DNA from: an uncultured virus (IMG/VR IMGVR_UViG_3300030099_001885)
Taxonomy: Duplodnaviria; Heunggongvirae; Uroviricota; Caudoviricetes
DNA length: 64,000 nt
Reading direction: 5' to 3' (one strand)
Virus record (IMG/VR): IMGVR_UViG_3300030099_001885
Span: 1-64,000 of that record
Shown: positions 1-20,888 of the stretch, piece after piece
Layout of the letters: every line of letters starts with the position of its first letter
Position numbering within the stretch: the first letter of the stretch is position 1
Translations under genes and position numbers: made by a program
Notes under the pieces: model-generated
Database searches by the model: none
What the model was told of the DNA's origin: nothing
Seen by the model: the letters and a program-made list of their open reading frames with translations, nothing else

Positions 1-3000
1 CTTTATGAAGATTTTTCAGATGCTGTTGGAAGAGGATTAAATGCTCAATCAAAGGCAGCTCAGGCTAAAGCAGATGCTGCTACAAAACTACAACTCAAAA
101 ACAATTACATCAGGAATCCTAATACAACATTTGGTTTAGGTCACGGTTATGTTCCCAATGCAACTAATGCAACAGATCAAGCAAAAAATGATATGTTATT
201 TACTGTAGTAGGAGAAGCGGCACCTAATGCAGTTGCAGGTATTTTTAATCCTAACGGTGCTGCAGCCAATACCGTACAGGGAAGTCTTGTTGCGGCAGCA
301 ATTCCGGGTCTGAGCGATACTGATCCAAGTGGTAGATCTCTTCAAAACGGTTTAGCTAATTTTCAAGAGCTGTTAAAAACTGGAGATCCCCAAGCTCTGG
401 CTGATTTTGCAAAAAATAATCCCGGTATAGAACAAGAAACTTTAGATGACCTGCGGCTATTAATGGATCCTATGTCATTTATTCAATATGGTTTTAATCC
501 ATCCCAATATAAGACTCAAGTAGGTAGACTGGGAGCTGTTAGTATGGCTGCACAATTACTTGCATTAGATTCTGGTAATGATGCATTAACTACCCCAGAT
601 GGTGTTGTGTTTAATTTTAAATTAGATCCTAGTAGTAGAGATCAATTAAGAAACGCAATTCTTACAGTTCCAGAAGGTGCAGTTGCTGGAAAGTCGGCTA
701 CAGCAAGAAATGCATATCGCATGCGTAATATTGGCGTGGCTGCTGCTCAAATTCAAGCACATAGAAAAGGAATCGAAGCTCCTAAAGATAGGCAAGCACA
801 AGCACAGGTAAGATCAGGTGCTTTAGCTGGGACAGAAGACCTACCCCAAACAAGTGATTTTGTAAGAATCTTAGAGAAAGATTTAGGATTCTCAAGAGAT
901 GGTGCTTTAACTATGTCTGTCATGGGTACAATTATTCCTAATTTTGATTTAGATAGATTAACGCCTGAAATGAGAGACGGAGCTATGGATATTTTGCAAG
1001 GTTTAGCTTTTAGTCGAGAAGGTACTTTTCAAAATCCACTTGTTCAAGCAGAGTATACTGCTGCACAAAGTTTGTTTAGAAAAGATCCTACAGATGCAAG
1101 AGTGTCTGGTACTAGGCGTATTGAGCCCGATGAAGTAGGAAAAAAATTAAGATATTTTTTTGCATTAGGCAAAGGTTTAGGTACATCGGATGCTCTTGAC
1201 TATCAATATACAGACGAAGAACAAACAAGCTATGATGCTTTAATTTCATCTCTTGCTGCAGAAAATACTGATGAAGCTAAAAAAGAAGCAGAAGAAGGAT
1301 TAGCTCGTACTGTTCGCACCTTTGAGGTGGGTGATCAATCTATTGGTCTTAGTATGATGGCAGCTGTAAGAACTTTAGCATTAACAACAAATGATGGAAG
1401 AAATCCATCTCTTACTCCCGGTCAATTCTTTGGTATGGTTCGTATGCCTACTAATTTAGCTCCGGGTAGATCAATGATTGCAGAAGATGGTGGGCTTATT
1501 GTGCCTACTGCAGTTGCTGATTTAACTGGAGATTTATCTACAGCTGGTATTGATATTAAATTAAATACTACACAATCATTAGCAACATCAGCAGTTAATA
1601 ATGCTCGTTTAATGCAAGAATATGTTATTCATCCAGACAACTATGGTGAATATCAATTAAGCACTAGTGAAAGTGCTATGTTGTTTGATAGAGTACGATC
1701 ATTTGCTCAAGAATATGATACAGAATTAGCTGCCGGTCAAATTGATATGTTATCTGCAATTGTTTCTTCTGAATTAATTATGGAGCAAACTACAGGTCAG
1801 CCTAGTCCAATCATAGATGATTTACTTAGAGGACAAGCAGACATTAAAGGTGGTATAAAAAGAGAAGAGTTAATCCCACAGTCTAAAGATGGAAACCCAT
1901 TTAAGATGCCTCACTTGCCTACAATTCAAGTTCTTGTTGCTAATGTTCAAATGGCTGAACCTATGCCCGGACAGGGAGAAGATCAAAAGGATGCGGCGTT
2001 TGTAACTACTGTTAGCGGCGATCAAAAATTATTTGGTATTGAACGTGAAAATCCTATTGGAGACTTAACACAAAATCAAATTGCTGTTCAATTATTTGAG
2101 GAACATAGAAGAGTAGTGCCAGTACAGCGATTAGATATTAACGATCAAAATGTAGAATCATATATTAGTAATGGTACAGATACAAGCCAAGCATTAACAA
2201 GACAGGCTGTAGCTCGGCGTAATGCAGCTGGAGATAATATACCTATCGGTGCGTTATTAACCAGTAGAACCTCAGCTGGAGGTCACGCTACAACTGCAGC
2301 CACAAATCCAGCAGCACGTTTACAACAGTTTAATATTGAACGTGCTGATTATGTTACAAGATTAGGTGATGGTCTTGTTAACCTTGGTTTTGATGTACCT
2401 AAAAATGCTGAAGGTGTATATGACTTTGGCGGCTTTTCTAAGCATCCTCTTGTTAATGTAACATTAGATGGTAAGACAGCACAAATGCGACCCGTTGAAG
2501 CATTAGCATATGTACAGGCTGCTTTATATCCTCGACTTGCACATGCGGCACACTTGGCTGGTGTTGAAATAAGTCCTGAATTTACTGAAGCATTTGCATC
2601 TATTGAAGCAGGAGAAGTAGAAGGAATGGACGCAGGAGATCCCTTCAGAGTAGATCCTCGTATTGGGTCTGTTTTAGAAGCCAGTGATCTTCAGGCATTT
2701 AGTCGTTATGGTCAAAGTGGAATAGATGCTAGAGGGAGAAGGGGTGTTGTTAGAGAAGAACTAAGACCTACTGTAGATTATAGAGATGACGTTTATGGTG
2801 ATGATCCAGATGCAGAAGCTTTTGTAACATTTATGGTTGGTTCAGCTCTTCAACGTTTGCCTGATCCTAGATATGGAGGCAAAGTTAGTCACACAGCAGA
2901 TGCTGATGTAGCTATTGAAAGATATTATGATGTATTGCCTCCAGCACTTCAACGAGCAGAGTTTAGAAGAGTAAGTGGCGATAGTCCTGAATATTATGAT

Positions 3001-4308
3001 AGAAGTTTAAATGAACCCGCTTTTAATTTAGATGGTGTTTTAGCTACAGCTTTAGACGCTGCTGGAACAGTTGAAGGCAATTATCTTTTAAGCGGTGATT
3101 TTTTAATTGATGGTTGGAATTTTGTTGCAAGAGAAATGCTGCCAGATAGAATTTTTAAAGAAGGACATTCTGGAGATGATTTACAAATTGAAGCTGATAC
3201 TAGTGCGGCTAGTAGAGCAGCAGCTAGAGCGGTTTTGTATACACAAGCTGAAAGTATTAGACAAAGAGATGCTTTAAATGATTGGTGGGCATTTGAAGGA
3301 AATCCGAATATATATCCAGTTAATATCCATAACATTGATAAGCTAAGTCAAGGCACTTTTGGTGCAGATGGTAGACTTACCTTTGCTCAATCTGATATTA
3401 AACTTTCTCCAAAACAACCACCTGTAAGTAATCCGCCGGTTAAAATTGTAGATCCTTTAGATTTAACTGCACCAGCACCTAGACCTATAAGTACACCTGC
3501 AGATAAGCCAACATTGCCACCAAGTGGGACGCGTAAAGGCTTGCCAGTAAGTACACCTGACGATAAACCAATTGCAGGATTGCCTAAAGGTTTTGATGAT
3601 TTGCCGGGAACACAAGTAGGACCTGTTATAACTTTAGATCAATTAACCGATCAAGGTGGACCAAGAGGAACTACAATTACCAACTTTGTTGTTATGTCTG
3701 CACTGGGGGCTACTAATGGTTCTCTTCCAGATTATGTTAATTTAAATGGAATTAACCGATCTAAGGTTGGGCTTAAAAGAGATGGCAATAAGACCAGTCT
3801 ATTTATGCAGACACCTGTTGATTATCCTACATCTGATTTACAAAGAGAAATTGTAAGTAGTTTTAGAAAAGAATTAAAAGATTTTAGAAAATTAAATAAT
3901 GTTTTAAAATCTGAAGGTATTCAAGGTTTTAGTAAATTTGCACCAAAAGATCCAAGTAAATATTGGAAGTCTTATGAACCCGGATTTACTTCAGATACCT
4001 TTGATATTAGCATGATCTATGACTATAAGGGTTACTTTAGAGACTGGGGTAAAAATATTATTAAAGATGACTATCAAGGTGACTCAGGTGATCTGTTTGT
4101 TGATCGGACTAATAAACCTGCCCTTGATTATTTAGACACATCGCGAACCGATAAAACTTTTGGGGCTGCTATGATGAACCCTGATAATTGGGATATTAAT
4201 ATTGACTTAGATGCAGATGCTATTCTGCAAAATTTACAAGACGGTAATTATCGTAGAACTGATAATATTGGCTTCGGCTTTTCCTTTAACTTTACATGGG
4301 AGTTTTAA
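1..4308 (+). CDS. Large internal virion/ejection protein (gp15-like position), 5'-truncated by the window edge
   Basis: Frame 1 is open from base 1, upstream of the listed Met at 193. It is over 1430 aa, Ala/Asp/Gln-rich, and lies directly before the giant virion protein. No catalytic motif recognised, so the call rests on position. Confidence 0.6.
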   Translation, partial: LYEDFSDAVGRGLNAQSKAAQAKADAATKLQLKNNYIRNPNTTFGLGHGYVPNATNATDQAKNDMLFTVVGEAAPNAVAGIFNPNGAAANTVQGSLVAAAIPGLSDTDPSGRSLQNGLANFQELLKTGDPQALADFAKNNPGIEQETLDDLRLLMDPMSFIQYGFNPSQYKTQVGRLGAVSMAAQLLALDSGNDALTTPDGVVFNFKLDPSSRDQLRNAILTVPEGAVAGKSATARNAYRMRNIGVAAAQIQAHRKGIEAPKDRQAQAQVRSGALAGTEDLPQTSDFVRILEKDLGFSRDGALTMSVMGTIIPNFDLDRLTPEMRDGAMDILQGLAFSREGTFQNPLVQAEYTAAQSLFRKDPTDARVSGTRRIEPDEVGKKLRYFFALGKGLGTSDALDYQYTDEEQTSYDALISSLAAENTDEAKKEAEEGLARTVRTFEVGDQSIGLSMMAAVRTLALTTNDGRNPSLTPGQFFGMVRMPTNLAPGRSMIAEDGGLIVPTAVADLTGDLSTAGIDIKLNTTQSLATSAVNNARLMQEYVIHPDNYGEYQLSTSESAMLFDRVRSFAQEYDTELAAGQIDMLSAIVSSELIMEQTTGQPSPIIDDLLRGQADIKGGIKREELIPQSKDGNPFKMPHLPTIQVLVANVQMAEPMPGQGEDQKDAAFVTTVSGDQKLFGIERENPIGDLTQNQIAVQLFEEHRRVVPVQRLDINDQNVESYISNGTDTSQALTRQAVARRNAAGDNIPIGALLTSRTSAGGHATTAATNPAARLQQFNIERADYVTRLGDGLVNLGFDVPKNAEGVYDFGGFSKHPLVNVTLDGKTAQMRPVEALAYVQAALYPRLAHAAHLAGVEISPEFTEAFASIEAGEVEGMDAGDPFRVDPRIGSVLEASDLQAFSRYGQSGIDARGRRGVVREELRPTVDYRDDVYGDDPDAEAFVTFMVGSALQRLPDPRYGGKVSHTADADVAIERYYDVLPPALQRAEFRRVSGDSPEYYDRSLNEPAFNLDGVLATALDAAGTVEGNYLLSGDFLIDGWNFVAREMLPDRIFKEGHSGDDLQIEADTSAASRAAARAVLYTQAESIRQRDALNDWWAFEGNPNIYPVNIHNIDKLSQGTFGADGRLTFAQSDIKLSPKQPPVSNPPVKIVDPLDLTAPAPRPISTPADKPTLPPSGTRKGLPVSTPDDKPIAGLPKGFDDLPGTQVGPVITLDQLTDQGGPRGTTITNFVVMSALGATNGSLPDYVNLNGINRSKVGLKRDGNKTSLFMQTPVDYPTSDLQREIVSSFRKELKDFRKLNNVLKSEGIQGFSKFAPKDPSKYWKSYEPGFTSDTFDISMIYDYKGYFRDWGKNIIKDDYQGDSGDLFVDRTNKPALDYLDTSRTDKTFGAAMMNPDNWDINIDLDADAILQNLQDGNYRRTDNIGFGFSFNFTWEF

Positions 4309-4311: not shown

Positions 4312-7300
4312 ATGATACCAGATCCTCGACAAGACTTGTTTGATTTAGCAGATCAACAAGATATCTTTAGGCAATTGACGCGGCAGCAGTCGCCTCAGCC
4401 TACAACTACTCGGGGGGAAAGAGAGTATGCTGACTTCTTAGAAGATTTAGAAGTAAATGCTAATGTAGGTTCTATGAGTTTTAGTAGAGCAGAGGCTTCA
4501 CGACAGGCTGCTTTAGATAGAAGAACTTATGGCAAGTTAAAAGATAATGTACAAAATGCAGAGATGCTTGGTCATGATAATCCTAAGCATGCCTCTGAAT
4601 TATATGATTTTAACTTTAAGATTCAAACTCCTGATGCTCAGGGCAACCTTGTAATTAAAGATAGTAGAACTCTTGGGTGGGCAGATGCTAGTGAAGCTAG
4701 TTTTGCTATGGCTAATACTGAAGTGCAACGTGGTATTGTTTCGCGTAACGCAGCAGGTATGAATATCAATAAGAACTTAATGTTTGGTGGAGCTAGAGAA
4801 TTCTTTGAGAATAGAGGATTAAGTCAAAAAGATACTCCCTATGATCAAGAAGTAAAAGATATTACTGTAGCCAGTGATGGATTTAATATGGATCCTAGAA
4901 ACTGGAGAACTTCGTTTGATTTGTTTGGCTATATGGATAGTCCAGATACTAATGCACTGAAATGGGTTGATCCTAGTTTTAATGCTAAAGAATATTTAAA
5001 TGAAATTAATGCTCTTAAACCAGAGTATACCTCTCTATTAATGCGTAATGGTGTAGATATTGAAGCATTAAAAAAAACTACTAATGCTAATCAGTTTTGG
5101 ATGCAGATTAATAAACAACAGGTATTAATGTCAGCAGCTACATCTATTGCTATGTGGAAAGAAAAAGTTCCTGAGTATCAAGAGTGGGCAATGCTTACTA
5201 AAGATTTTATTAGAGATTCTTTAATCAATGACCCAGATTTTGCAGGTGAAATGGTTCTTACTGGTGCTCTTGGTATTCTTAGTGCTGGTACGGCTGTTCC
5301 CGGTTTAATGGCACTGTCAGTTGCTCGTAAGGGTGGCAGAGGTGTTAAAGTAGCCAAACATATGTTAAAAGCATCTAGAATGATTAAGAAGGCAGCACAA
5401 AAAGCTAATAATGCTTTGCCTCAAAACTGGGGATTAACCTTTGGTCATGCAATTAGAAATACACAAGTAGGTAAGTTCTTAAGTGTAACCAGTGATGACT
5501 TTATTGTAGACGGTGTGCGATTTGGTAAAACTCGAAAGTATGGCTCTAAGTTAGCTGGATATACTCTTGCAGAAGTACCTGCAGGTTTTATTGAAGAGGG
5601 TATTGCTGGTGCATACAATGCTTATACTATTAATCAACTTGATACAACTGAAGATAGAAGCTTATTTAAATCTTTTGTTAATGAAGGTATTCAAGGTTCT
5701 TTAGTTAGAGCTTTTGCTATTAATCCTTTACTTAGAGGATTTAACTTTGGTATTAGGTATGGCACTTCTAAAGCGGGCAATATCGCTTTAAATAATATTG
5801 GTTTCTTAGGTGGAGAAGCTGGCTGGGCTCAATCTCTTGGCGGTGCTTTTATGGAAGCACGACGTTTTGCTGATTTAGATGATGTTCAATTCTTAGATAA
5901 TGAGATTGATACAATCGAGGTTCTTGAAGCACTAAGATCTATGAAGATGAGAGAATCGGATCTTGTTGCAGAACTTGAAGGCACAACTTTAGAACAACTT
6001 GTGAATGAACATCCAGCTATGATTGCTATCTCAGAGATGCTTAAGTTTGATCAAGAGGGTAGAATTATTGGCAGAGATCCAGAAACTGGAGAGCTTAAGA
6101 TTGTATCACTTTTAAAAGAAGCTCGTCGTGAAGTAGCTAGAGCTAGAGTATTTAAATCAGAAGGTATTGAAGATCCTGATATTGATTTAGAAATTAGAGA
6201 TACTGATACAGATGTTGAGAAACAAAGAAAGAAAGAACTTAATGATCGTATTGAAGACGATATTAAAAACTCTGATGTAACTAATGATGAAATTAATCTA
6301 GCCATGTTGCATACTTTCTGGGGTAAACTGGATGCCGATGCTAAGAGCTCATATGAAGCTCAACAGATGAGAAACATGGCATACTTTAAAGTACAAGTTA
6401 GAGGTCTTGCTATTGAGCGTATGCGTGCTGCTCAGAAAGAAGGCAGGAAGTTAACTATTGAGGAAGCTCAACAGGAAGTCTTGCGGGATCCTGACTTACT
6501 CACCAAGATTGATTCTGGTGGTATTGCTACTGAGTTAGATCAGTTAATTGCTAAACAACATCCAGAATTGTTTGATGAACGACTTGTCTATAATGAAGAA
6601 ACAGGAGAACAAAGTGTTGTCTTTGTACCCAAGTCTATGGTTGTTGATAAAGACGGTACTGTTATGGCTGGTGAAGCTCTTACGGAAATGTTAAATAACA
6701 TTCGTCGTAATGTAAACTTTGATACACAACGTGCTGCAATTATGAACCACCGTAAGAAATTAGGCATGGTAAAGGATGTTAGATTTGCTATTGATGAAGC
6801 ATTAAATCAAAGGGTTGGAGAAATCTTTGGCAAGCTGCAAGGTAAAATTTCACATGGCAAGAACTTTGAAAGAGTACAAAATTTTGTTCGTCAAGAATAT
6901 GGTGCAGCTCAAAAAGGTACAGTTATTACCGTCGATGGTAAAAGAGGTACATTAAAAGATATTGATGATGCTGATATTATTGTACTTAGAACACAAGTTA
7001 GAGGCACTAAGACTACAGGTGAGTTAACATTTAAAGGTTACAATCTTGCAGATGGTACACTTGGTGATAAAGTTGTGATTGTCGAGATTAGTGCCTTTAC
7101 TATTGAACATGCAGAAACATTTAGAAACTTTTTAAATAGTCTTGAGGTTATTGATAAACTAGAAGTTGAAAAAATTCAAAACTCTGTAAGACCTGTAATT
7201 GTTAGAGGTTTGAATAGAACACTTAATCTTGATAATTTATCAGATACAGAATTAGATGAAGTATATGGTATTGTTACTTTAAATAGAGATCCATCTTTAC

Positions 7301-10300
7301 GATCTCCAGAATTAAGAGAAACAAGAGAAGGATTCCCTATTGTTGAAGAGCCTACAGCTAGACAGGCTAGACGGCAGCAACAACAAGAGCAGATCATAGA
7401 TGCATTAGCAGATATTTTAGTTGTTAGAGCAGTGTCTCAATTTGAAGGTGCTAGTGAAGTTCAAACCTCTATGCTTGCTAGAATTAATGGATTATTAAAT
7501 TTAGATGAAGGTAAAATTAATTCAATTGTTAGCAATCTTAGAAGATCCCAGTTTGGTCGTAGTTTATTACAAGATGTAGGTAATGTATTTGGTATTGAGC
7601 TTGCTCCTCTCGAAGGACTCCCTGTGCCTCCTACTGATACAGATGCCACAGACCGCCTCAGAGACGCTATGGGCGTTCCTAGAGATTCAGCCGTACCTCC
7701 ACAGGCTGACAGACCGCAGCCCCCTACAGAGGATCCTGACGCACCTCCTGCGGGTCCTGATACTCCTATTGGACCACAGCCATTTATTGGTCCTCAGCCT
7801 AGAGTGGGCAAAGCTGATCCAACACCTACACCACCTGCAGATATTGCTCCTACTCCTAAACCAGCCCCGCCAGCAGAAACTGCTCCTGTAACCGAGCCTG
7901 ATCCGGTAACTGAGCCTACGCCACCGGCAGAAACTAGTACAGAAGATAATGCAGAAGAGTTGGATAATGCTTTAGAATCTGCGGCTACAACTACAACATC
8001 CGATTCTGGTGATCAACTTAATCAAGCTATGGAAGATGCTGATACTGGTAAGATTGCTCAAGAAAAAGATACTGAGATGACTGGTGACTTGGCTAAAGCT
8101 GCCGAGCTTAGAAAAGAAGCCAATGCTATCCAAGAAAGAATTGCACAACGTAACTCTCAATTAGATTCTAGTGGTCAACGTGTTGTTAATAATGCTAGAA
8201 CACGCGGTGATGAAATTAGAACTGAACTAAAAGCATTAGAACAGGCTCGTACTGATATGCGTGCTAAAGATGATTTTAGTCCAGAAGATGGAGAGTATGT
8301 TAATAATATGCAAAGAACAGATAAGCTTGAAAAAGAGTTGCAAAAATTAGAGCAAGGTGCTGTAAAAGCACAGCTTAGAACTACTGAAAATAATAAAGAT
8401 GCAAACGAAGCTGATCTAAAACGACTGCAAGAAATTCAAGATGAAATGTCTAAGCTTGCTCCTGATACTCAGTTTACTGTAACGGAAGAACTGTGGGCTC
8501 AGGTAGAAGTGTTAAAAATGAAGCGTCAAAAGTATGACAAAGCATATAGGGCATTAAATAAATTAGTAGACCCTAGTAAAAAAGCTATGTTATCACAGAT
8601 TCAATCTGCTCTAGCTACTGCTGGTATTTATCAATCTAAAGATAAAATTGGTAAGGATATGCGAGATCAGATTAATAGAATTCTTAAGAATCAAAAGAAA
8701 GATCCATTACCTTCTTATAAAGATAATACAGAAGTCAATGTTAAATTATTTAATCAAGCTTTCAAGGCATATTCAAAAGGTATTTTAAGAATTGGCAAAC
8801 AGCCTTTAACCAAAGATGAGTTGGGTCAAGCATCTGTTATGGCTAAGATTGGTAAGTCTAAATGGAGCGATCTAAGTGATATGGACTCAGCTGATGCTAT
8901 TGCTGCATATCAGATTGATAGCAGTACAGATCCTTTAAGTATTACCGATAAACCTTTTACTGGTATAATGAAAGAATCATTTAATCCTCTTAATAGATTA
9001 ACAGGAGACTTAGAGGAAGACGAAAAAATTGCAGCGTTGGCTATTCAAAATAACTTAGAGTTTGTCAAAACTTTACAAAATAGTTTAATTAATGTTTTCA
9101 ATACTTTAAATAGAAGATTTGTAACAGCTGCTGAGCTAGCATCGTTTGCACTAGGCACTACTACTAGAGTGGGCAATGTAAATGTGGGTGCTGTATATGC
9201 CAAATTAAACTTTGATGTTATTTTCCCAAATGCTTTAAGAAAAGGTGATGATGGTAAGTCTGTTCAATTCTTTAGTGTAGAAACTTTATTAGATGAATTA
9301 GATATGCATCAAGCACGCTTAGAGTTTGCCATGCCTACTAAAGATGGTATTAAAGGCCAAAGAAATACTTTGCGTAAAATTGAAGCAGCTAGAGCTTTGT
9401 TAGAACGAGATGAAATGGTTCCCGATCCAGAACTTCTTATTGAAGAGGTAATTGAGTTGGCGGAAGGTGATGCAGAAGTCTTGAGAACTGTAGGTAAACA
9501 ATTGTTTGCTGAAGGGTCTACAGCTGGTAGATATTTAGTTGGTATTGATCGTAATGGCCAAATTATCTATAACACTGATTCTGAAGTATATGAATCTAAT
9601 ATTGATCAAGCAATCCTAACTAGATTGGAATCTTATAGTACAAATAGAATTGCTGTTAGAAATATTATTGATGAGTTGATTAGAGCAGAGATTATTCCTG
9701 AATCTGCTAGACAAATGAAAATCTTAGAAGACGATGATGTTTTAGAATTTAGAGAATATATTCGTGAATATCTTCTTAAGTATCCGGGCAATGAGTCTGG
9801 AACATTAGCGGCGTGGGGTAATGGAGAAGTATCGTATTCATTTGCTGACCAAGTTGGCATGGGTGTTGTTGATACTTTAGCTATGGTGCGTGAAGGCACT
9901 GAACATGAAAACATTGAATCATTTAACGATGAGTTTAAAGATGGTCGCATTGTAGATGTTGATAGAGTAAGAGAAGGCAGAGATCCTAATAAGTATCGCG
10001 GTGCTCCTCTGCGTATTAACATGGCAGAACCTATGACTGCTGGTAGATTACAAAAGCTTCGCGAAGATCATAGATTGATGCGTATTAATCAGTTTGTATT
10101 AGAGCAAGACTTAACTCCTGAGCAAGTAAGAGAAGTTTTTGACTGGGCAGATACTGGCAGCGAAGCAACAGAAGTTGTAACTGATGCTGCTGGATTTATT
10201 GCTGGTGAAAGACCAATGCCTAGAATCCTAGTGTCAGGTCCAGAACAAACATTGCGAGAGCGAGACAAAGTAATTGATGACATGCTATTAACTATGTCTG

Positions 10301-13300
10301 GTGTAGATCAAGTATTGGCATCTACTATTCATGATGCTTGGAATACTCAGACTAATGGTGTACAGCCCAATGGCGGTTTTATTGATGAAGGAGAGTTTAG
10401 AAAATTATCCGAAAAATTAGGAATGACTGCTGATGGTTTGTCAAGAGTTATGAGCAACAGAGAAGGTGCAGGAGCTGGTGCATACGGTGGTTTAGCTTCC
10501 GGTATTACTAGCTTTGGCACTGTAGCATTCCATGCAAACCGTGGCTGGGAAGCATTGTTCCCGATCTTTAGAGATGCAGCTATTGATTCTGTCGCATCTT
10601 GGGAAGCTCTTAACAAAGCTATTGCACAAGATCCAACTATTGAAATTAAAAGTCTTCAAGATATTCTTAGCAAAGAAACTTATTTTGATGGCAACTTTAA
10701 TGGTATTCATCATAAGATGGCTTTGTTATTCCAGTGGACAAACAAGCAAGTCTTTGATGGTGCTACTAGAGAAGAGATTAGAGCAGCTATTGAAGGCGAA
10801 GGAGATGCCTTTGATCAGTTCTTAGCTAAACAAATGGATAGGATTAATGAAGAGTTTAAGTCTTCAGCTGGACAAGATTATTATGCTAAGGTTGCTCACG
10901 ATGTTATGTTTAAAGTTTTGAATACAGCATATAATGGTTTAGGAGAAGCTAAGACTTCTGCACTTAAAACTGTAGAGTCTATGAAAGAAAGAGGACTGTT
11001 ACCAGAAACTATTAATCAAAATAACTATAAAGATATTCTTACTGTTGAAGCTATTGGTGACGAGTCTAATGCTGATCTTAATATTTTAAGAAAGTTATTT
11101 AAGAAACCTGTTATGGTGTATCTGTATGGTGCAGGATTTAACAAGATTAACAGCCAGTTTATTGACTTTATGCAAACTGAATTTGATATGTCAATGAGTG
11201 AAGCTACCGAGATTGCCTTGCCTTTGTCTCAAGTTGCTCATGGTTTTGGTATGAAAGAAAGACAAGTTGCCATGACTATGCTTGCTAAAGAGGAATCATC
11301 TCTTAGCGAAATCATTGGTGGTAGAAATCAAATGGAAGCTATCCTTGATGCCATGCGAAAACGTATGGATCAAAGAGGATTTAATTCGCAAGCTGTTCGA
11401 GATATTAACAATATTATTGCAACTATGACTGGATTGGATGATCTTGATAACATCCAATTTAATCATATTGCTTTCCAAATCCAAGCTCGCAATGCAATGA
11501 TTGAAGATCTTATCCAAGTTCGTTTAGGTTATGAGGTTGGTACACCTGAGTATAATGCTGTTAAGAAACAAATTAATAGTATGACCAAAGCAGCACAAGA
11601 CAAGCAAAGTCAAGCCTTACAAACTAGAATTCACAAGGGACTTGATTCTATTTCCGGCAAAGATCCAACAGGAGAGCGAGCACACTTTGCTGTTACAGAT
11701 CCAGCGGAGCGACAAGAATATGTTAATGCTATTGAGATTATTTTAACTAGAGATAGAAGTGAGTGGGCAACTCTTATCCCTGACTTTATTGATAAGGATG
11801 GTAATTTAAAGAGCAAGCCTTCAGGCAAAACTTTAGGAAAAGAAAATATTGCCAGCATTCTTAGATTAATTAGAACTGAACTTAGTCAACCAATCACCAA
11901 ATCGGAAGCTAGAGAAATTCAAGATGCTGCTATTAATGCATCAGGTATTGAAAGCGGTTTGTTTAAAGCTGTTAAAGCATTAAATCAAGTTGCTCGTAAA
12001 GCTGATATGCAAAGTCTTGAAGAGCTTATGGATTTTATGGGCGTTAGTTTATTAGAACCTAGTATGCGAGAAACGCTGTCACAATTCTATTCTGAAAACG
12101 AAACCTATCGAGGTATTGGTAGTGACTTGTATTCTGGTAGATTGTATGCCACAGAGCATACAGGATCTCATCAAGGACCCAAGGGTGCTCAAGATAAGGG
12201 TCAATCTGCAAGTGAGCCCCTGTTATCTATGGGTGTAATGGTTAAGACTAGACCTGAGTTGACTAGAGAAAAAGCTGAACAAATGTTTGCTAGATTTATT
12301 CTGGGTCGTTCTGCTAATGTAAAAACTGACAGTAATCATATTATTATTCAACTCGCAAAAAAACAAGGTAGAGATGATATTGTTGCTTTACTTACTCCTG
12401 AAAGTGAGTTAACAGAACAACAGGTTGCAGAACGTGATGCACAGTTTGTTAAACAATGGTTAACAGAATATAGTAAGTTAAAAGATATTGAAAGAACTTT
12501 CCAACAGAAACGTAATGCTGCAGAAGCAATGGGGCATGTCTTAGATCCTGATGGTGTCTTAGCACAGAAGATTAAATTATCTGCTGGATTGCAAGCTGCT
12601 ACCCAAGGTACTTTAGATATGGGTGAATCAGCTCCATCTGAAAGCATTGATCAATTAATTGATAGACAAATTCAAGTTGGAGTAAACTATGGTTTATTCT
12701 CCAGTAGAGCTCAAGTATTTGATACTAGCTTCCGCGATCTTGGTGTACCTGAATTAAAAGTGTCAAGAGAAAAACGTAAATTAGGATTAAGTGCTAAACA
12801 AAGAATTGAAGATGTTAAACAATTCCAAGATGAGTATACAGGATTTGATGTAGATGATGCACGCGTAATCAAAGAAGAGCATGTTAATAACGTGTTAGAA
12901 AATTCTTATGAGACTGATCCTAATAGTTTATTACACGAACATCGTGAACGGTTAATGCAAAATGGATTAAGAGCAAGAGTAGGACACAGAACTATTCAAA
13001 GAGTTTCTTTCCAATTAGAAGATAGTCTTATTAACTTTGCTGCTGAAAATGGTTTAATTAATTTGGTTAAATCAAATGATTGGCAAACATTAGACTATTT
13101 GCGACAGGCTTTTATTATTCGTGAGAAGAATGCTAGATTACAAGCAGAAGAAGTGCAGATTATTATGCAAGATGTTTCTAAGCCAAATGATGTTCGTAAT
13201 AGAGAAATCGAAGCTCGGATTCATTATTGGAGAAGAATGACTGATCTTGAGATCAGAGCTATTAATCAAAGGTTTATTGATAACAACGAGGCTCGAAGTT

Positions 13301-16300
13301 ACACAACTGAATTAACTCCAGCTGGTAACATGGGTATTGTTACTAAGAAAATTCTTCAAGATAAAGATGGAAATGATCGACCAGTTGGACAAATCTTAGC
13401 TGCTCTCTCTAATGATTTAAATAACTTACAATCTATGGGGGCTTTTGCAATAGTACCCGGTGTTGCTTTCCATGAAAGAACTAGAGGTAGATTTGATATC
13501 AGCGAAAACAGAGATCAACCTAGAGTGGTTCATGCTCACGATGTGGCTCATATTTTAACAACCGTTTATGATTTTAAAATTACAAGAGACTATTTGTTAA
13601 ACAATGAAGACTATACTCAAACATTAATTGAGCGTAAAGGTTTAGACATGACTGTTAAAGAGTTTGTTGAAAACTTAACTGTAACTGGCATGGAATTAGA
13701 TCTTGTAGAAATTGCTGATTTATTAGATAGAATTGAAGCAGCTAATCCTACCTTAGCTGAGACTGTTGTCTTCTCTAATGTTGGCGAAGCCTTTATGGGT
13801 AAAGTTAGTGAGACAGAAACTGCAGCTGCATTAAATAATGATACGCGTCGTAGCGTTGCTCAAGGTATTGGTAAAGTACAAGAAGAACAAAAAGTTATTG
13901 GTACTACAGCTAGATTTAGATTAACCTTGGGTCAAGCCAAAGAAGCATTGTTAGCTCTTCGTAATGCTCCCGTCTTAGATATTGTTTCAGATGTTAAGTA
14001 TACTGGTATTAGCGGCATCAACCGACCACGATCTAGATCCTCTCGTCTTGAGGTTGATCATGTTACGGGTCAACGTGTAACAGATATTCGGTTACGCGAT
14101 GAGCTTCATGCAGAAGCATTGCAAGCTATTGTAGATCGTAATTATATTAGAACTACTAACCGATCTGATCTGCCTAGCAGCACTAAAATTCGTACAGTTA
14201 TTGGTGGTCGTGATAGATCTATGTTAAGTAGACTTGAGCGAAGAAATAGAAGACTTCCTAAGTTAACTAAACTTGGTAAGCGGCAAGAGCAAGCTATTTA
14301 TTTAGATTATACTAATGTGTCCGGTACAACATCTAGAGGTAGAACTCTTTATGATACTGGATTAAATGCAGTAATTGCAGCATATCAAAAGAATAATATT
14401 GATCTTTCTAGTCCTCTAAGAAAAGAAATTGTTTCTCTTACAACTAATCCAAAATTAAACAAGACTAAAGCACAAAGAAAAACTGTTCTGGGTTATTTAC
14501 TTCAACACTTTGAACCTACTGGTATTCGTGTTCCCGGGCATACAGATGTTGAAATTGCTGTAGCTTTGGCCTACATTAATCTTGGCTATGGTGATAACTT
14601 TGCTGATGGCACCTATGCAACTTTGCAAGAAGAATTAAAAACTACTAAGGTTCAGAATACTGCCAAGTTAATGCAAGAGCTTATGACGTTAAACCATACT
14701 GTTATTAGCGGTGAAGCTAATCCATTCTTCTATGATGCTAGAGGATTTGTTGCCAACTTAAATGTTAGCAAGGTAGATTTAGATACTGATGTAGAATTGT
14801 TTGATGTCTTCCAACAGTATCTTAAAGAACAAGTTGGTGATGAGTTTGATATTACTAATAAGAATGATGTTGATACAGCACGCAAAGCTTTAGAAGAAGC
14901 TTTGGTATCTACGGATCAACATATGAATAGCTATGAATTTACTGATAAAACTGTGTTGCAAATTCAAACACCAGAAGAAGTATCTCTTGGTTTTGATCTT
15001 AACCCAACCACTGCATTATTAAAAGAAACATTAAATAATGCTGTAGAAAATGGTCACATGGCTGCATCTACTAGAGATATTGTTGCAACTGTAATTGGTA
15101 GAATGGCTGCATTAAATCCTGATTTATTAAATGATCTTAGATTTAATATTGGTAGAGATGCAGAAGGTAATGTAATTGAAGAAAGCCGTGCCATGACAAT
15201 TCCAGAAGACGATGGCTATCTGGTTGAACTTAGTGGTAGAGATGCTAAGAAGGCACCACTGGAAGCTGCTAAGATTTTAATTCACGAGATTATTCACATT
15301 GGTACTTTTAAGTATTATGATCTTGATAGCTCATCGCAAGAGTTGCGAGATATCAAAGGTTTAATGGGTCAACAAAGTGTTAGCCGTTTAACTTATCGTC
15401 TTACTAAAGCTATGCATGGTAGGTTAAGTGATGGCGAAGCACTTGCACGACATAGACACTACAACAATAACCCAGAAGAGTTTATTGCCGAAACTGCAGC
15501 AATGTACTTTATGTCTGAAGCTGCTGAAGATATTGATTTAATTCTTAAAGAAGAAGCAGAGAAGGCAGAAGCTACCGATGTAGAAACTACTGAGAAGCGT
15601 ACTTTTATTGAGAAGTTTACTGCTGCATTTACTCGTATGCTGCAAAATGCAAGAGTACAAATTAATCAAATGGCTGCAATCTTAAAACAATACTCACAAC
15701 GAGAGGAGTACAAACAATCATTTGATACCATGCAAAAGCTTGCTTATCGTGCTGCCGGTATTGTTGTTGCCGATGGTAGACAAGATGCTACAGTTGTTCG
15801 TAAGCCAAACCTGCAGAGCTACATGAGGCATCATGAAGAATCAGAAATACCAACAACAGAATCTATATCTGATATACAGTTTACAAACATGCAAATTAAA
15901 CATGCACAACTAGAAGCTAAGTTAAATGCAGCTACTACAGATGATAGATTATCACCAGAAGATTTTGGGGGAGAGATTCCTACTACATTATCTGAGGCTG
16001 AGATATCTGAAATTATTGATCAACTAGCTGATCTTGAAGCTCAAATTCAAAAGCATGATGTTGTTGATGACTTTGAAGTTAAGAGAAGTGCAAGACTGTT
16101 AGCTGAACAAAGATTAATTGAAGCTGCAGAGGTTGATGATAAGGGTGTATCTAAAGCCAATATTAAAGATATGTTAAGAGAAACACCAGCACTTGCTATG
16201 TCTATTATGATGAATAATCTTAGGATTAACAAAGGTGCTATTCATAGAACTTTCATAGAACGTAGAGCTCAATCAGCAAGCGGTCGTGCAGCATTAGCAA

Positions 16301-19300
16301 TTGCTAGTGATCATGCACAAACTAATAATACTATTGATTCTATTTTTGATATGGTTGTAAGGTTGTCATTGGTTATTGATAGTCAAGCTTTGATAACAGA
16401 ACACATGGTTAGTGGCGAAGGGTCACATGACTTATTGCGAGCTAAGCAACAAGTTGATAATGATATGGCATTCTTGCGTAGTCAATTAAGAACTCTTAAG
16501 CCACAAGATCATCCTACTGTTATGGAGTATCTTGCTGATGAAACACTTGAAGTTAGAGAAGGCGAAGAAGCTATTAAACGAGTTGCGGATCTTACCCGTA
16601 GCTCAATGAGTGGCATTATTCAACTAGCTAAAGATACAGGCATCTTGTTTGAAAACTTAGAATACAATCCTACTCCTATGAAAATTAATGAAACTAAGTT
16701 GGCACAAAATGAAGCAGGTGCTCTTACTCATCTTTCTGAATTAATTGGTAAGAAAGTAGTTGGCGAATTAAGTCGAGATAATATTGATCCATTGACTTTA
16801 ATGAACTCAGGTATTCTTCCGCCGTTGTTAATTACGGATAGATCTGCTAATGTAGACAAGCTGCACATTAATGATCAAGATAGATTTATTGAACATATTG
16901 TAGAACTGGCTAAAACAGATGAAGGCATTGCAGCAATTCGAGATATTATGCATGCCGACTTTATGCCTGTAGGTACTCGTAAGCAATTAGCTGATTTAGA
17001 TCCTAGCGAGATTGCAAACTATAATCCAGATTTATTAACTAATGAGTGGAGTAAAAATGATTTGCTTTCACTGCAATATGGATTGCGTAACCTGTACAAA
17101 AAGGGTTTCCAACGTCAAGGTATGAAGAGAAACGTAGATGGCATTCTTGCTTTAGTTAAGTCTAGATCTGATGAGTATCGAGGTGCGGTTACTAAAGCAT
17201 TTGATTCTATGGATATTGAAATCTTTAGAGCAAATAGAGATTTCCATCTTAATTTAACTAAACCTTCTCTTGATCACGGTGAAGCAACTATGCGAGAAGA
17301 GTTCCAGAATGCTAATACTCCTGCATTGTTTAGAGCTAGAATGTTCTTGGGTGAAACACAAACAGGTGCTAGATTCTTAGCTAAAGATAAAAACTTTGAC
17401 CCATCTCCTGCAGAGTTGATGGCAAAATCTAGAGGCGATGTGGCTGGAGATATTGACAATCCCTTGTATGGTATCTTTGTTGTAGATCCCAATACTTTGT
17501 TTGATGCTGTTTCAGTAGGTCTTGGATTTGATGCAGTGGCTTCTGAAGCATTAGGCAACGCTCTTGGTGGTGATAATTATAAAATTACCGGAATTAGATT
17601 TGATGATATTCTTACTGCGTTAATGGCAGAAGGTTCTGATCAGATTGTTAAAAACTTTAAGGGCATTGATGGATTAAGTTCTACTCTTAAGGGTCGTAAG
17701 AATATGAGTACATTGCGTACTGATTTAGAAGTTTTGCAAAATAAATATAACGCACTTGCTGGTCGACGTATGAGAATTGATCCTACTCAAGCTGGTGGCA
17801 TTACAAATAAATTAGCTGCTGTTGGTGGTGACTTAGTTCTTGCTATGTATGGTGGTAACTTAACCATGGCTACTTCTATTGTAGAAGGAACGTTAGCTGG
17901 TCTTCAAATGATGGGTCGAGGTGATATGCTTTTGGGTCCTGCTAGATTAATGACTTCTATTATTAAGAGTGCCTTGCAAGGAACAATTAGTGGTGCTGGT
18001 AAGTTTGCTCAAGAGGTAGGATTTAGAGGAGATGTATCTAAAGGTGTTGCTGAGTTTGGAATGCGTAACAGTTTAACAGAGCTAGCATTTGCACACCAGC
18101 ATGCAACTGTGCGTGGCATGGAAGCCTCAGAATCTGAAGGCAGTTTGGTTACTGATTCTACCTTAAATAAAATTGGTAATGTTATTGGCAAGCTTCCTAG
18201 AGCTGCTGCTAAGATGTCTACTAGTGCTTCTGGTGGTGTGCAAAATGCAATTAAATTCCATGTTGAGGGTATGGCAATTAATACATTAGATCGTCTTATT
18301 AAGAGTGGTGCTATCTTTAAATTATCTAATTTCTTATCTGATCCTGCTAATGCCGAGTTATTAGATATTAATTTAGATGATGGTCGATATACAATTCTCC
18401 ATAAAAAGATTAAGAGAATCTTGCGAGAATCTGGAGTACAAGACTTTAATTTCTTGGGTAAACAGGATGTTAAAATTATTATGGCTCTTATGCAATCAGG
18501 TGCTTTTAAACCAGAGTTCTTGGTTTCTCTTAATGAATTATTACAAAAAGCTGGTCTTGGCAAGTATGAATTTGATGGAACTAGAAAGAAGTATGATCCC
18601 GAGTTTAGCCCGTTATCACAAATCGCTAGATTGCAAGAAGTTGCACTGATGGATCCTGATCCCAAGAAGCGTAAAGAATATAATGATACTATCAATGTTA
18701 TTAAAGAATATGTAAATAGAGAGATTGAAGCCCGGTTTGTGGGAGCTAATCCTTTGCATATGGATACTATGAATAGTGGTTTTGGTGTTCTTCTTAAAGT
18801 GTTTAGATCCTACCCCACTCTGTTCTTCAATCAGAGAATTAGACAGGATATGAAATACTATAGTCCTATTCAAAATGCTACGAGGCTTACAGCATTAATG
18901 GCTTTGGATATTGCATATATGGTTGCTCTTGAGTTTATTAAGAGTGGATTTGAAGAAGATCGTCTTGAACAACTTATGGAAGAACTCCAACAGAAAGAAT
19001 CGTTAATGCGTCTGATGGCGAGAACTCCAACCTTTGGTGTTTGGGGTGGCGTGATTGCTAACGGTATTGCTGAAAGTGTAATTCACATTTCTGGTAGAAA
19101 GGGCTATACACAAAACCTTTTGAATCAAGCCTTTATGCCTGTGCCATTTACTAGGGCTCAGAATATTTACAAAGATGTTATGGATCTGGCTAAGTATGGA
19201 TTCTCAGATGATGCAACTGATGCGGCTCGATTTAACCTAGCATTGCTTAATCTGAGCACTGCTTTGCCCGGAACTCAAGAAGCATTTATCAAAGCAGCCG

Positions 19301-19731
19301 CCATGCACTATCTGACCAATGATGAGATGGATGATATCTTATTACAGAAAATGCGAAGAAGAATTCCGGGTGGTGGTGGTGGAGGCACTAGCTTGCCATT
19401 ATATTATCAAAATCCAAATGACCCTCTCAATAATCCGGGGGTTGTAGATTATGCAGCCGCTAGAAACATGTGGCCTGATGATATGCTTCACTTCGATATT
19501 ATGGCAAATCTTGCGCATCAGCCATTGCGGAGCCTGATGGGGCCTGAGATGCCTTCGGCTGAGGAACTAAGGGCAGAGGCCATAGAAAGATCTCAACCCT
19601 CTCAGACGGCGGCTGCGTCCCCGCAACAGCCTGTTAGCAATCCGCCGCTGGCTACGAAGCCTGCTGTGCCTACTCAGGCAGGGTCTACCCCTAGTGCTAG
19701 ATTGGCTCAAGCTTTGGGAAGCACGCCATGA
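4312..19731 (+). CDS. Giant (5139 aa) internal virion protein with an embedded T7/N4-family RNA polymerase-like domain and a zincin-like HExxH domain; candidate virion RNAP
   Basis: Motif A-like YFDGNFNGIHH (10681), QDYYAKVA (about 10873; T7 QDIYGIVA) and motif B RKLFKKPVMVYLYGAG (11089). Also HEIIH (15283) with EEFIAE (15475) and a Pro-rich linker at about 7620-7950. It occupies the last-virion-gene (gp16-like) position. Confidence 0.75.
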   Translation: MIPDPRQDLFDLADQQDIFRQLTRQQSPQPTTTRGEREYADFLEDLEVNANVGSMSFSRAEASRQAALDRRTYGKLKDNVQNAEMLGHDNPKHASELYDFNFKIQTPDAQGNLVIKDSRTLGWADASEASFAMANTEVQRGIVSRNAAGMNINKNLMFGGAREFFENRGLSQKDTPYDQEVKDITVASDGFNMDPRNWRTSFDLFGYMDSPDTNALKWVDPSFNAKEYLNEINALKPEYTSLLMRNGVDIEALKKTTNANQFWMQINKQQVLMSAATSIAMWKEKVPEYQEWAMLTKDFIRDSLINDPDFAGEMVLTGALGILSAGTAVPGLMALSVARKGGRGVKVAKHMLKASRMIKKAAQKANNALPQNWGLTFGHAIRNTQVGKFLSVTSDDFIVDGVRFGKTRKYGSKLAGYTLAEVPAGFIEEGIAGAYNAYTINQLDTTEDRSLFKSFVNEGIQGSLVRAFAINPLLRGFNFGIRYGTSKAGNIALNNIGFLGGEAGWAQSLGGAFMEARRFADLDDVQFLDNEIDTIEVLEALRSMKMRESDLVAELEGTTLEQLVNEHPAMIAISEMLKFDQEGRIIGRDPETGELKIVSLLKEARREVARARVFKSEGIEDPDIDLEIRDTDTDVEKQRKKELNDRIEDDIKNSDVTNDEINLAMLHTFWGKLDADAKSSYEAQQMRNMAYFKVQVRGLAIERMRAAQKEGRKLTIEEAQQEVLRDPDLLTKIDSGGIATELDQLIAKQHPELFDERLVYNEETGEQSVVFVPKSMVVDKDGTVMAGEALTEMLNNIRRNVNFDTQRAAIMNHRKKLGMVKDVRFAIDEALNQRVGEIFGKLQGKISHGKNFERVQNFVRQEYGAAQKGTVITVDGKRGTLKDIDDADIIVLRTQVRGTKTTGELTFKGYNLADGTLGDKVVIVEISAFTIEHAETFRNFLNSLEVIDKLEVEKIQNSVRPVIVRGLNRTLNLDNLSDTELDEVYGIVTLNRDPSLRSPELRETREGFPIVEEPTARQARRQQQQEQIIDALADILVVRAVSQFEGASEVQTSMLARINGLLNLDEGKINSIVSNLRRSQFGRSLLQDVGNVFGIELAPLEGLPVPPTDTDATDRLRDAMGVPRDSAVPPQADRPQPPTEDPDAPPAGPDTPIGPQPFIGPQPRVGKADPTPTPPADIAPTPKPAPPAETAPVTEPDPVTEPTPPAETSTEDNAEELDNALESAATTTTSDSGDQLNQAMEDADTGKIAQEKDTEMTGDLAKAAELRKEANAIQERIAQRNSQLDSSGQRVVNNARTRGDEIRTELKALEQARTDMRAKDDFSPEDGEYVNNMQRTDKLEKELQKLEQGAVKAQLRTTENNKDANEADLKRLQEIQDEMSKLAPDTQFTVTEELWAQVEVLKMKRQKYDKAYRALNKLVDPSKKAMLSQIQSALATAGIYQSKDKIGKDMRDQINRILKNQKKDPLPSYKDNTEVNVKLFNQAFKAYSKGILRIGKQPLTKDELGQASVMAKIGKSKWSDLSDMDSADAIAAYQIDSSTDPLSITDKPFTGIMKESFNPLNRLTGDLEEDEKIAALAIQNNLEFVKTLQNSLINVFNTLNRRFVTAAELASFALGTTTRVGNVNVGAVYAKLNFDVIFPNALRKGDDGKSVQFFSVETLLDELDMHQARLEFAMPTKDGIKGQRNTLRKIEAARALLERDEMVPDPELLIEEVIELAEGDAEVLRTVGKQLFAEGSTAGRYLVGIDRNGQIIYNTDSEVYESNIDQAILTRLESYSTNRIAVRNIIDELIRAEIIPESARQMKILEDDDVLEFREYIREYLLKYPGNESGTLAAWGNGEVSYSFADQVGMGVVDTLAMVREGTEHENIESFNDEFKDGRIVDVDRVREGRDPNKYRGAPLRINMAEPMTAGRLQKLREDHRLMRINQFVLEQDLTPEQVREVFDWADTGSEATEVVTDAAGFIAGERPMPRILVSGPEQTLRERDKVIDDMLLTMSGVDQVLASTIHDAWNTQTNGVQPNGGFIDEGEFRKLSEKLGMTADGLSRVMSNREGAGAGAYGGLASGITSFGTVAFHANRGWEALFPIFRDAAIDSVASWEALNKAIAQDPTIEIKSLQDILSKETYFDGNFNGIHHKMALLFQWTNKQVFDGATREEIRAAIEGEGDAFDQFLAKQMDRINEEFKSSAGQDYYAKVAHDVMFKVLNTAYNGLGEAKTSALKTVESMKERGLLPETINQNNYKDILTVEAIGDESNADLNILRKLFKKPVMVYLYGAGFNKINSQFIDFMQTEFDMSMSEATEIALPLSQVAHGFGMKERQVAMTMLAKEESSLSEIIGGRNQMEAILDAMRKRMDQRGFNSQAVRDINNIIATMTGLDDLDNIQFNHIAFQIQARNAMIEDLIQVRLGYEVGTPEYNAVKKQINSMTKAAQDKQSQALQTRIHKGLDSISGKDPTGERAHFAVTDPAERQEYVNAIEIILTRDRSEWATLIPDFIDKDGNLKSKPSGKTLGKENIASILRLIRTELSQPITKSEAREIQDAAINASGIESGLFKAVKALNQVARKADMQSLEELMDFMGVSLLEPSMRETLSQFYSENETYRGIGSDLYSGRLYATEHTGSHQGPKGAQDKGQSASEPLLSMGVMVKTRPELTREKAEQMFARFILGRSANVKTDSNHIIIQLAKKQGRDDIVALLTPESELTEQQVAERDAQFVKQWLTEYSKLKDIERTFQQKRNAAEAMGHVLDPDGVLAQKIKLSAGLQAATQGTLDMGESAPSESIDQLIDRQIQVGVNYGLFSSRAQVFDTSFRDLGVPELKVSREKRKLGLSAKQRIEDVKQFQDEYTGFDVDDARVIKEEHVNNVLENSYETDPNSLLHEHRERLMQNGLRARVGHRTIQRVSFQLEDSLINFAAENGLINLVKSNDWQTLDYLRQAFIIREKNARLQAEEVQIIMQDVSKPNDVRNREIEARIHYWRRMTDLEIRAINQRFIDNNEARSYTTELTPAGNMGIVTKKILQDKDGNDRPVGQILAALSNDLNNLQSMGAFAIVPGVAFHERTRGRFDISENRDQPRVVHAHDVAHILTTVYDFKITRDYLLNNEDYTQTLIERKGLDMTVKEFVENLTVTGMELDLVEIADLLDRIEAANPTLAETVVFSNVGEAFMGKVSETETAAALNNDTRRSVAQGIGKVQEEQKVIGTTARFRLTLGQAKEALLALRNAPVLDIVSDVKYTGISGINRPRSRSSRLEVDHVTGQRVTDIRLRDELHAEALQAIVDRNYIRTTNRSDLPSSTKIRTVIGGRDRSMLSRLERRNRRLPKLTKLGKRQEQAIYLDYTNVSGTTSRGRTLYDTGLNAVIAAYQKNNIDLSSPLRKEIVSLTTNPKLNKTKAQRKTVLGYLLQHFEPTGIRVPGHTDVEIAVALAYINLGYGDNFADGTYATLQEELKTTKVQNTAKLMQELMTLNHTVISGEANPFFYDARGFVANLNVSKVDLDTDVELFDVFQQYLKEQVGDEFDITNKNDVDTARKALEEALVSTDQHMNSYEFTDKTVLQIQTPEEVSLGFDLNPTTALLKETLNNAVENGHMAASTRDIVATVIGRMAALNPDLLNDLRFNIGRDAEGNVIEESRAMTIPEDDGYLVELSGRDAKKAPLEAAKILIHEIIHIGTFKYYDLDSSSQELRDIKGLMGQQSVSRLTYRLTKAMHGRLSDGEALARHRHYNNNPEEFIAETAAMYFMSEAAEDIDLILKEEAEKAEATDVETTEKRTFIEKFTAAFTRMLQNARVQINQMAAILKQYSQREEYKQSFDTMQKLAYRAAGIVVADGRQDATVVRKPNLQSYMRHHEESEIPTTESISDIQFTNMQIKHAQLEAKLNAATTDDRLSPEDFGGEIPTTLSEAEISEIIDQLADLEAQIQKHDVVDDFEVKRSARLLAEQRLIEAAEVDDKGVSKANIKDMLRETPALAMSIMMNNLRINKGAIHRTFIERRAQSASGRAALAIASDHAQTNNTIDSIFDMVVRLSLVIDSQALITEHMVSGEGSHDLLRAKQQVDNDMAFLRSQLRTLKPQDHPTVMEYLADETLEVREGEEAIKRVADLTRSSMSGIIQLAKDTGILFENLEYNPTPMKINETKLAQNEAGALTHLSELIGKKVVGELSRDNIDPLTLMNSGILPPLLITDRSANVDKLHINDQDRFIEHIVELAKTDEGIAAIRDIMHADFMPVGTRKQLADLDPSEIANYNPDLLTNEWSKNDLLSLQYGLRNLYKKGFQRQGMKRNVDGILALVKSRSDEYRGAVTKAFDSMDIEIFRANRDFHLNLTKPSLDHGEATMREEFQNANTPALFRARMFLGETQTGARFLAKDKNFDPSPAELMAKSRGDVAGDIDNPLYGIFVVDPNTLFDAVSVGLGFDAVASEALGNALGGDNYKITGIRFDDILTALMAEGSDQIVKNFKGIDGLSSTLKGRKNMSTLRTDLEVLQNKYNALAGRRMRIDPTQAGGITNKLAAVGGDLVLAMYGGNLTMATSIVEGTLAGLQMMGRGDMLLGPARLMTSIIKSALQGTISGAGKFAQEVGFRGDVSKGVAEFGMRNSLTELAFAHQHATVRGMEASESEGSLVTDSTLNKIGNVIGKLPRAAAKMSTSASGGVQNAIKFHVEGMAINTLDRLIKSGAIFKLSNFLSDPANAELLDINLDDGRYTILHKKIKRILRESGVQDFNFLGKQDVKIIMALMQSGAFKPEFLVSLNELLQKAGLGKYEFDGTRKKYDPEFSPLSQIARLQEVALMDPDPKKRKEYNDTINVIKEYVNREIEARFVGANPLHMDTMNSGFGVLLKVFRSYPTLFFNQRIRQDMKYYSPIQNATRLTALMALDIAYMVALEFIKSGFEEDRLEQLMEELQQKESLMRLMARTPTFGVWGGVIANGIAESVIHISGRKGYTQNLLNQAFMPVPFTRAQNIYKDVMDLAKYGFSDDATDAARFNLALLNLSTALPGTQEAFIKAAAMHYLTNDEMDDILLQKMRRRIPGGGGGGTSLPLYYQNPNDPLNNPGVVDYAAARNMWPDDMLHFDIMANLAHQPLRSLMGPEMPSAEELRAEAIERSQPSQTAAASPQQPVSNPPLATKPAVPTQAGSTPSARLAQALGSTP

Positions 19732-20574: not shown

Positions 20575-20580
20575 CCTGCT

Positions 20581-20850: not shown

Positions 20851-20888
20851 GTCCAATACTAACTACTAATTACGAAAGATATAAAATT

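Follow-up and report, generated by a model that had tools for sequence, protein, structure and literature searches.

Reordered T7-type RNA polymerase blocks in a putative giant ejection protein of an uncultured T7-like phage

Can the conserved motifs of a T7-type RNA polymerase lie in the wrong order along a protein and still form an active enzyme? The question is raised by a giant protein gene in a 64,000-nucleotide stretch of DNA from an uncultured tailed virus (positions 1 to 64,000 of IMG/VR record IMGVR_UViG_3300030099_001885; hereafter the window), which covers the greater part of a virus record of 67,272 bases. A preliminary description of this DNA had recognized motifs A and B in the giant protein in the T7 order, with the best match to motif C (IHDAW) upstream of motif A and the best match to the DxxGR motif (DLYSGRLY) downstream of motif B – the reverse of the T7 arrangement – and offered as explanations a rearranged palm, a very divergent motif C, or a catalytically dead domain. 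The data presented here favor the rearranged palm. On balance, we lean slightly towards the view that this is an active T7-family RNA polymerase with a four-block rewired core and a reversed catalytic Asp pair, carried in the largest ejection protein and forming part of a three-polymerase cascade reached apart from that of phage N4. This view builds on the identity of the blocks in profile alignments, their order, the invariance of catalytic residues, the absence of cysteine, and the genomic setting.

A pattern scan of the open reading frame, which encodes 5139 amino acids (aa), places all of the motifs exactly where they had been described: IHDAW at aa 2006 (10327-10341), DGNFNG at aa 2126 (10687), QDYY at aa 2188 (10873), the exact pattern R-x3-K-x7-YG at aa 2260-2273 (11089-11130), DLYSGRLY at aa 2605 (12124-12147) and HAHD at aa 3074 (13531). 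The entire giant protein contains a single [IVLFM]HD, which is the IHD, and a single R...K.......YG, which is the motif B pattern.

To map these motifs onto the T7 enzyme we number its blocks as I (thumb and DxxGR), II (motifs A and B), III (as far as the PNxxH helix) and IV (motif C). A T7-family profile was built of 22 sequences, of which 10 are named phage polymerases and 12 belong to this phage group, and hhalign was used to compare it with 34 overlapping segments, each of 80 aa, of a 21-row alignment of the giant protein family. Fourteen of the 34 segments scored above 18.0, the maximum among 102 reversed or shuffled segments; 13 of these lie on motif blocks and one, marginal, lies elsewhere (18.2, aa 2357-2369), and the matches exceed what chance would give. 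In the resulting alignments (Table 1) H2007 and D2008 fall on T7 H811 and D812, D2126 on D537, D2189 on D569, and H3074 and D3077 on H784 and D787, the T7 residue identities having been checked on the T7 sequence record. The hairpin motif at aa 2605-2610 is D-x3-G-R, one residue longer than DxxGR, with D2605 and R2610 aligned to T7 D421 and R425.

The block order in the giant protein is IV-II-I-III, compared to I-II-III-IV in T7. The unusual motif order is real, and each of the three clades shows C, A, B, DxxGR, PNxxH. The extent of the rearrangement had been understated: four blocks are involved, and a single circular permutation does not account for them, because opening the circle between III and IV would yield IV-I-II-III, and here I and II are additionally swapped. 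HAHD, which had been proposed as a weaker motif C, instead belongs to PRVVHAHD, which corresponds to T7 PNFVHSQD (aa 3063-3089 to T7 773-799). A PNxxH helix is thus present, about 800 aa after motif B, and no motif C follows that helix.

Searches with the whole module or the whole protein point to the same places. With the window as first row of the alignment, unguided hhalign of the complete module recovers the C, B and thumb-start blocks; with the alignment of clades 2 and 3 it recovers A-B and DxxGR. When the whole protein is scanned with a T7 motif C profile, the clade 1 segment containing IHD ranks first of 146 (score 21.6; next other place 14.7). The idea that the order arose by duplication within the protein, a look-alike near aa 2802 being what is left of a second A-B pair, found no support: 19 segment-versus-segment comparisons all gave E values of at least 0.096, and the Asp of the look-alike is not conserved. 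The conserved lead-in to the module (aa 1820-1930) has no counterpart in T7 or N4 among the profile segments. The presence of reordered blocks in the giant protein is well supported.

Standard database searches see little of this module. PHROG 414 (RNA polymerase; E 5e-5) and PHROG 2206 (virion RNA polymerase; E 2e-5) match only aa 2177-2290, from the D-x-Y motif to motif B, and no Pfam family falls on the module. A tblastn search of 50,697 annotated phage records gave no match to it, the ESM Atlas gave no usable match, and sequence searches of the PDB returned nothing relevant, the sole match below 0.001 being an artefact caused by the repeats in a designed PPR protein.

Direct searches for relatives found one close clade, 43-45% identical across the module. 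Following the 812-aa polymerase of the phage to related contigs, with 31 of the 38 loci of its match list taken further, gave two weak motif A matches in giants of about 3900 aa (G006 and G007), from which a second clade (11 proteins) and a third (L081-L083) were reached. The 21 rows of the working alignment comprise 6, 12 and 3 for clades 1, 2 and 3; it omits P0004 (96% identical to the window), protein ids already represented by an identical or nearly identical locus row (going by the printed alignments), and the giant of G030, where the DxxGR block could not be anchored. Some clade 2 rows are mutually identical, and the family size given here is a lower bound.

Identity between clades is 14-24%. 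Of the 1005 ungapped columns in the range aa 1820-3198, 27 have the same residue in all 21 rows. Among the invariant residues are H2007, D2008, D2126, H2133, D2189, K2264, Y2272 and R2610. The motif B Lys and Tyr are present in all rows, with Arg replaced by Lys in three; the DxxGR arginine is invariant, and both the acid position of that motif and that of the PNxxH helix (3077) are Asp or Glu in 21 of 21. Six columns are always acidic (2008, 2026, 2126, 2189, 2605 and 3077), of which five correspond to T7 D812, D537, D569, D421 and D787, positions with Asp in 21 or 22 of the 22 family members; the sixth lies near T7 E830, which is acidic in 15 of 22.

At the HD, clade 1 has IHDA or IHDS, clade 2 has QHDS and clade 3 has NHDC, and the stretch is consistently 80-120 aa upstream of motif A. 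The residue following HD is Ser, Ala or Cys in every row, and Ser or Cys in 21 of 22 T7-family members. Conservation of IHDAW and DLYSGRLY in homologs had been suggested as a check on their significance, and both the HD and the GR arginine prove to be invariant (21 of 21 rows). Another downstream Asp completing the site had also been envisaged, and none of the 62 Asp residues between aa 2273 and 3200 is invariant. Two specific downstream candidates for motif C were rejected, D3227 being retained in clade 1 only, and a clade 2 FHD being FHQ in one member and absent from clades 1 and 3. From its alignment and conservation, Asp2008 is very probably the motif C Asp.

In T7 RNA polymerase D812 and D537 bind the two metal ions. 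The motif C, A-B, thumb-DxxGR and PNxxH helix blocks of the giant protein would fold into one ordinary T7/N4-type active site, in which Asp2008 and Asp2126 would bind two metal ions like T7 D812 and D537. Structure prediction offers little help. AlphaFold2 was run on the window module (901 aa, alignment of 14 rows) and on a 917-aa stretch of a clade 2 member (20 rows). The two models have a mean predicted local distance difference test score (pLDDT) of 50.2 and 43.5, and a predicted template modeling score of 0.31 and 0.27, respectively; in neither do the regions of motif C, motif A and DxxGR reach pLDDT 50, and Foldseek against the PDB gave no match at E 0.001. Both models being of low confidence and Foldseek blank, the proposed Asp2008-Asp2126 geometry is derived from homology and conservation only.

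These structural results weigh against an active rewired polymerase, as do several others. The invariant T7 residue Q544 is replaced by His in all rows, and the counterpart of T7 H784 is retained in clade 1 only. Single-sequence hidden Markov models give scores around zero or lower for motifs C, A and DxxGR, 12 of the 22 T7-family profile sequences come from this phage group, and in the T7 motif C scan of clade 2 alone the QHDS segment lies outside the top 6 of 112. An 8-sequence profile of the N4 virion RNA polymerase (vRNAP) finds only motif B above its null of 23.0 (2 of 34 segments); the thumb-start, DxxGR and PNxxH segments fall on the matching places of this profile with scores inside the null, and the motif C segment does not find N4's motif C. 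The 20 largest repeat families of the window brought out no repeated T7-type promoter, and no repeated N4-type promoter was found there. Finally, both models have a helix before the HD, at pLDDT under 30, whereas T7 has a strand before its motif C HD.

That helix, together with hydrophobic residues before the HD that are spaced in the sequence as in a helix, and the failure of the HD segment to rank in clade 2 alone, suits an explanation in which the polymerase domain is genuine, whereas the upstream HD serves some other purpose as a conserved motif at the end of a helix, the second metal ligand being elsewhere or unneeded. We consider this unlikely, given that no other Asp is invariant from motif B to aa 3198, that the downstream candidates (the clade 2 FHD and D3227) fail, and that the pooled segment aligns to T7 807-838 with HD upon HD. 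The module could also be a catalytically silent relic, serving as a DNA-binding or structural piece of the ejection channel. Of the blocks, the G030 giant has just GNG, one resembling motif C, with Gln in place of the His, and motif B; the giants of G011, G013 and G020 manage without the module, and the phage has two other polymerases. However, the columns that stay invariant at 14-24% identity between clades are largely residues catalytic in T7, and loss of the module accompanies loss of the short polymerase in the four records examined, making a silent relic distinctly unlikely; the catalytically dead domain of the preliminary description is likewise disfavored by the invariance of the HD and the GR arginine.

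A further alternative grants that the rewired fold is active and gives it a different output, either a product other than early mRNA (such as short primers) or a role mainly as a motor drawing DNA into the cell. The changes at T7 Q544 and H784, the short thumb, the extra DxxGR residue and the lack of a repeated T7-type or N4-type promoter in the window would fit such a role, as would the two polymerases that the phage already has. Yet the phage encodes its own primase-helicase, the motif B Tyr and DxxGR arginine are retained, and there is a precedent in N4, for which PMC4496689 describes a virion enzyme transcribing early genes; we regard this alternative as very improbable.

We return, then, to an injected and active virion RNA polymerase, which judging from sequence is probably how the giant protein works. 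It would be packed in the head and ejected along with two upstream partner proteins, and once injected it would transcribe the early region, including the gene for a 590-aa T7-type polymerase; an 812-aa, full-length T7-type polymerase would take over last, giving three steps as in N4. The 590-aa enzyme, likely the second step of the cascade, has 163 aa ahead of its DxRGR motif compared to 420 in T7. It may lack a promoter-binding domain and may need cofactors, like N4 RNAPII.

A short polymerase of 585-605 aa occurs together with an intact module in the window and in G003, G006, G007, G033, G036, G037 and G039, and is incomplete (cut off) in G032; none was seen in the fragments G034, G035 and G038. 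The module is missing from the giants of G011, G013 and G020 and reduced to remnants in that of G030, and each of these four records has one polymerase match. The link between module and short polymerase, drawn from few and related genomes, is suggestive. In G008, G009 and G031 the second polymerase is 722 aa, and the module region of the giants is not covered there.

G003 and the window have full-length polymerases that are 91% identical and giant modules that are only about 43% identical, for which we propose that the ejection gene changes rapidly or has been exchanged. The G030 giant (L067:9234 onward, 5694 aa) retains the GNG, IQDS and motif B blocks, with no score for the motif A, DxxGR and PNxxH blocks, and its module looks like a decaying copy. 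Residues 3755-4047 of the same giant are similar to the N-terminal region of the giants from G006 and G007, indicating domain shuffling among giants.

The genome is of T7-type build, with genes for a portal, scaffold, major head protein, two tail proteins, primase-helicase, DNA polymerase, single-stranded DNA-binding protein and exonuclease, a large terminase of T7 type close to the contig end, and all genes on a single coding strand. From its position and composition, the giant is likely the largest ejection (internal virion) protein; the products of the adjoining upstream gene and of the gene open at the contig end are likely the second and third. Cysteine is absent from the giant, from the products of both genes before it, and from N4 vRNAP, compared to 10 and 14 cysteines in the other two polymerases. 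The giant is the last of the three cysteine-free genes, as expected for an arrangement like that of N4 gp50.

Table 1. Coordinates of the giant protein gene, its polymerase blocks and associated genes (window positions unless another record is named; scores are those of hhalign against the T7-family profile)
Feature	Position	Strand	Details
Giant protein gene	4312..19731	+	5139 aa, 0 Cys
Conserved module lead-in, aa 1820-1930	9769..10101	+	Invariant G-N-G at aa 1836-1838; scores inside null range
Block IV, motif C counterpart, aa 2003-2035	10318..10416	+	T7 807-838; score 32.4
Block II start, motif A, aa 2121-2163	10672..10800	+	T7 532-577; score 25.4
D-x-Y motif after A, aa 2183-2203	10858..10920	+	T7 563-582; score 20.2
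Motif B, O helix, aa 2256-2290	11077..11181	+	T7 623-658; R2260, K2264, Y2272; score 31.6
Block I start, helix preceding thumb in T7, aa 2546-2575	11947..12036	+	T7 312-341; scores 34.5, 41.3
DxxGR hairpin, aa 2594-2626	12091..12189	+	T7 410-440; score 25.8
Block III end, PNxxH helix, aa 3063-3089	13498..13578	+	T7 773-799; scores 26.9, 28.0
HExxH zincin-like motif, C-terminal part of giant	15283..15297	+	Motif scan
Upstream neighbor gene	193..4308	+	1371 aa, 0 Cys; adjoins giant gene
Third Cys-free gene (open at contig end)	G000 65110-67272	not given	At least 721 aa
Short T7-type RNA polymerase	22394..24166	+	590 aa; normal motif order: DxRGR, A, PNxxH, IHD
Full-length T7-type RNA polymerase	29242..31680	+	812 aa; normal motif order: DxRGR, A, PNxxH, IHD

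Several other features of the giants were noted. The HExxH motif is shared by the giants of G006, G007, G013 and G030, and is followed about 60 aa on by a conserved EEF/EEL-type stretch, in giants both with and without the polymerase module. Upstream of the module the window giant has a Pro-rich linker with a short 18-nucleotide repeat (7700-7950). The clade 2 giants P0011, P0013 and P0019 have a precomputed match to PF13482 (RNase H-like), and the clade 2 consensus contains an FDIETH motif upstream of the polymerase module, possibly marking a nuclease domain.

Between the giant and short polymerase genes there are one to four copies of a double stem-loop, in the window (20580-22350) and in G003, G006, G007, G036, G037 and G039 (L124-L129). 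Each is built of a GC-rich stem of 10-14 base pairs with a GCAA, GAAA, ACAA or TTCG loop, followed by a shorter second stem; the stem sequences vary between phages yet remain paired. The window copy, at about 22298-22350, is common to G003, and the window has three GAAA-capped hairpins compared to none in shuffles. A matrix made from the clade 2 and 3 stem-loops scored at best 4.3 against the window genome, compared to 56.8 for a true copy in G007. Single-stranded DNA hairpin promoters in the early region are a feature of N4-like virion RNA polymerases. In the repeated stem-loops described here, the stem length of 10-14 base pairs, the loops and the G-T pairs suggest an element that acts as RNA, for example in processing or antitermination.

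If the giant protein is indeed an active polymerase, then as a natural rewired form it would show which connections in the T7 fold are free, and would offer new cut points at which to split or permute T7-type enzymes. It would also explain why database profiles miss these proteins, with no Pfam match and a weak PHROG match on one block, and would extend injected virion polymerases from the Schitoviridae to phages of T7 build. Permuted palms are known in RNA-virus polymerases, and none was found in the literature for the T7/mitochondrial family: a full-text search, in which subscription journals were largely uncovered, returned no permuted single-subunit RNA polymerase and no such giants in T7-like phages.

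The permuted RNA-dependent RNA polymerases have the palm order C-A-B, those of the Birnaviridae likewise. Like the enzyme proposed here they are active right-hand polymerases with a permuted palm, described for the Permutotetraviridae in PMC4666646, but they belong to another family, use an RNA template, and have one motif moved as opposed to four blocks in the giant. The closer comparison is with the T7 RNA polymerase family (PF00940, PHROG 414), of which six conserved blocks have counterparts in the giant, including the residues D421, R425, D537, D569, K631, Y639, D787, H811 and D812. The two differ in that the gap between the PNxxH helix and motif C is about 30 aa in T7 and 1060 aa and reversed in the giant, and in that the giant has no match to the N-terminal promoter-binding domain, its module being fused into a 5139-aa protein.

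In overall organization the giant resembles N4 gp50 (Schitoviridae). T7 and N4-like phages have three ejection proteins each, and in N4-like phages the vRNAP is the third of them (PMC13434306); N4 vRNAP transcribes early genes, among them those of the small RNAPII (PMC4496689). Set against these accounts of N4 (PMC4496689, PMC13434306), the window giant is likewise one very long chain in whose middle lies a T7-like polymerase domain, with a probable place as the last of three ejection proteins and a probable three-polymerase program; the two also share the absence of cysteine, and PHROG 2206 matches the window giant from D-x-Y to motif B. They differ in motif order, which in N4 is TxxGR, A, B, C (aa 419, 557, 665 and 949 of the fragment) with FDG at motif C, whereas the window giant has C, A, B, DxxGR with HD, and resides in a T7-like genome; beyond motif B, neither the tblastn search of the phage records nor the 8-sequence N4 profile found sequence homology across the N4 mini-vRNAP domain. 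N4 RNAPII provides a further parallel, with gp15 containing the thumb and DxxGR and gp16 containing motifs A, B and C, as described in PMC4496689. The thumb-DxxGR part can thus be a separate chain from A-B-C, which suggests that Block I can be cut loose. In N4 this is accomplished with two genes and a normal A-B-C order, whereas in the giant protein everything is in one chain, and motif C has moved too.

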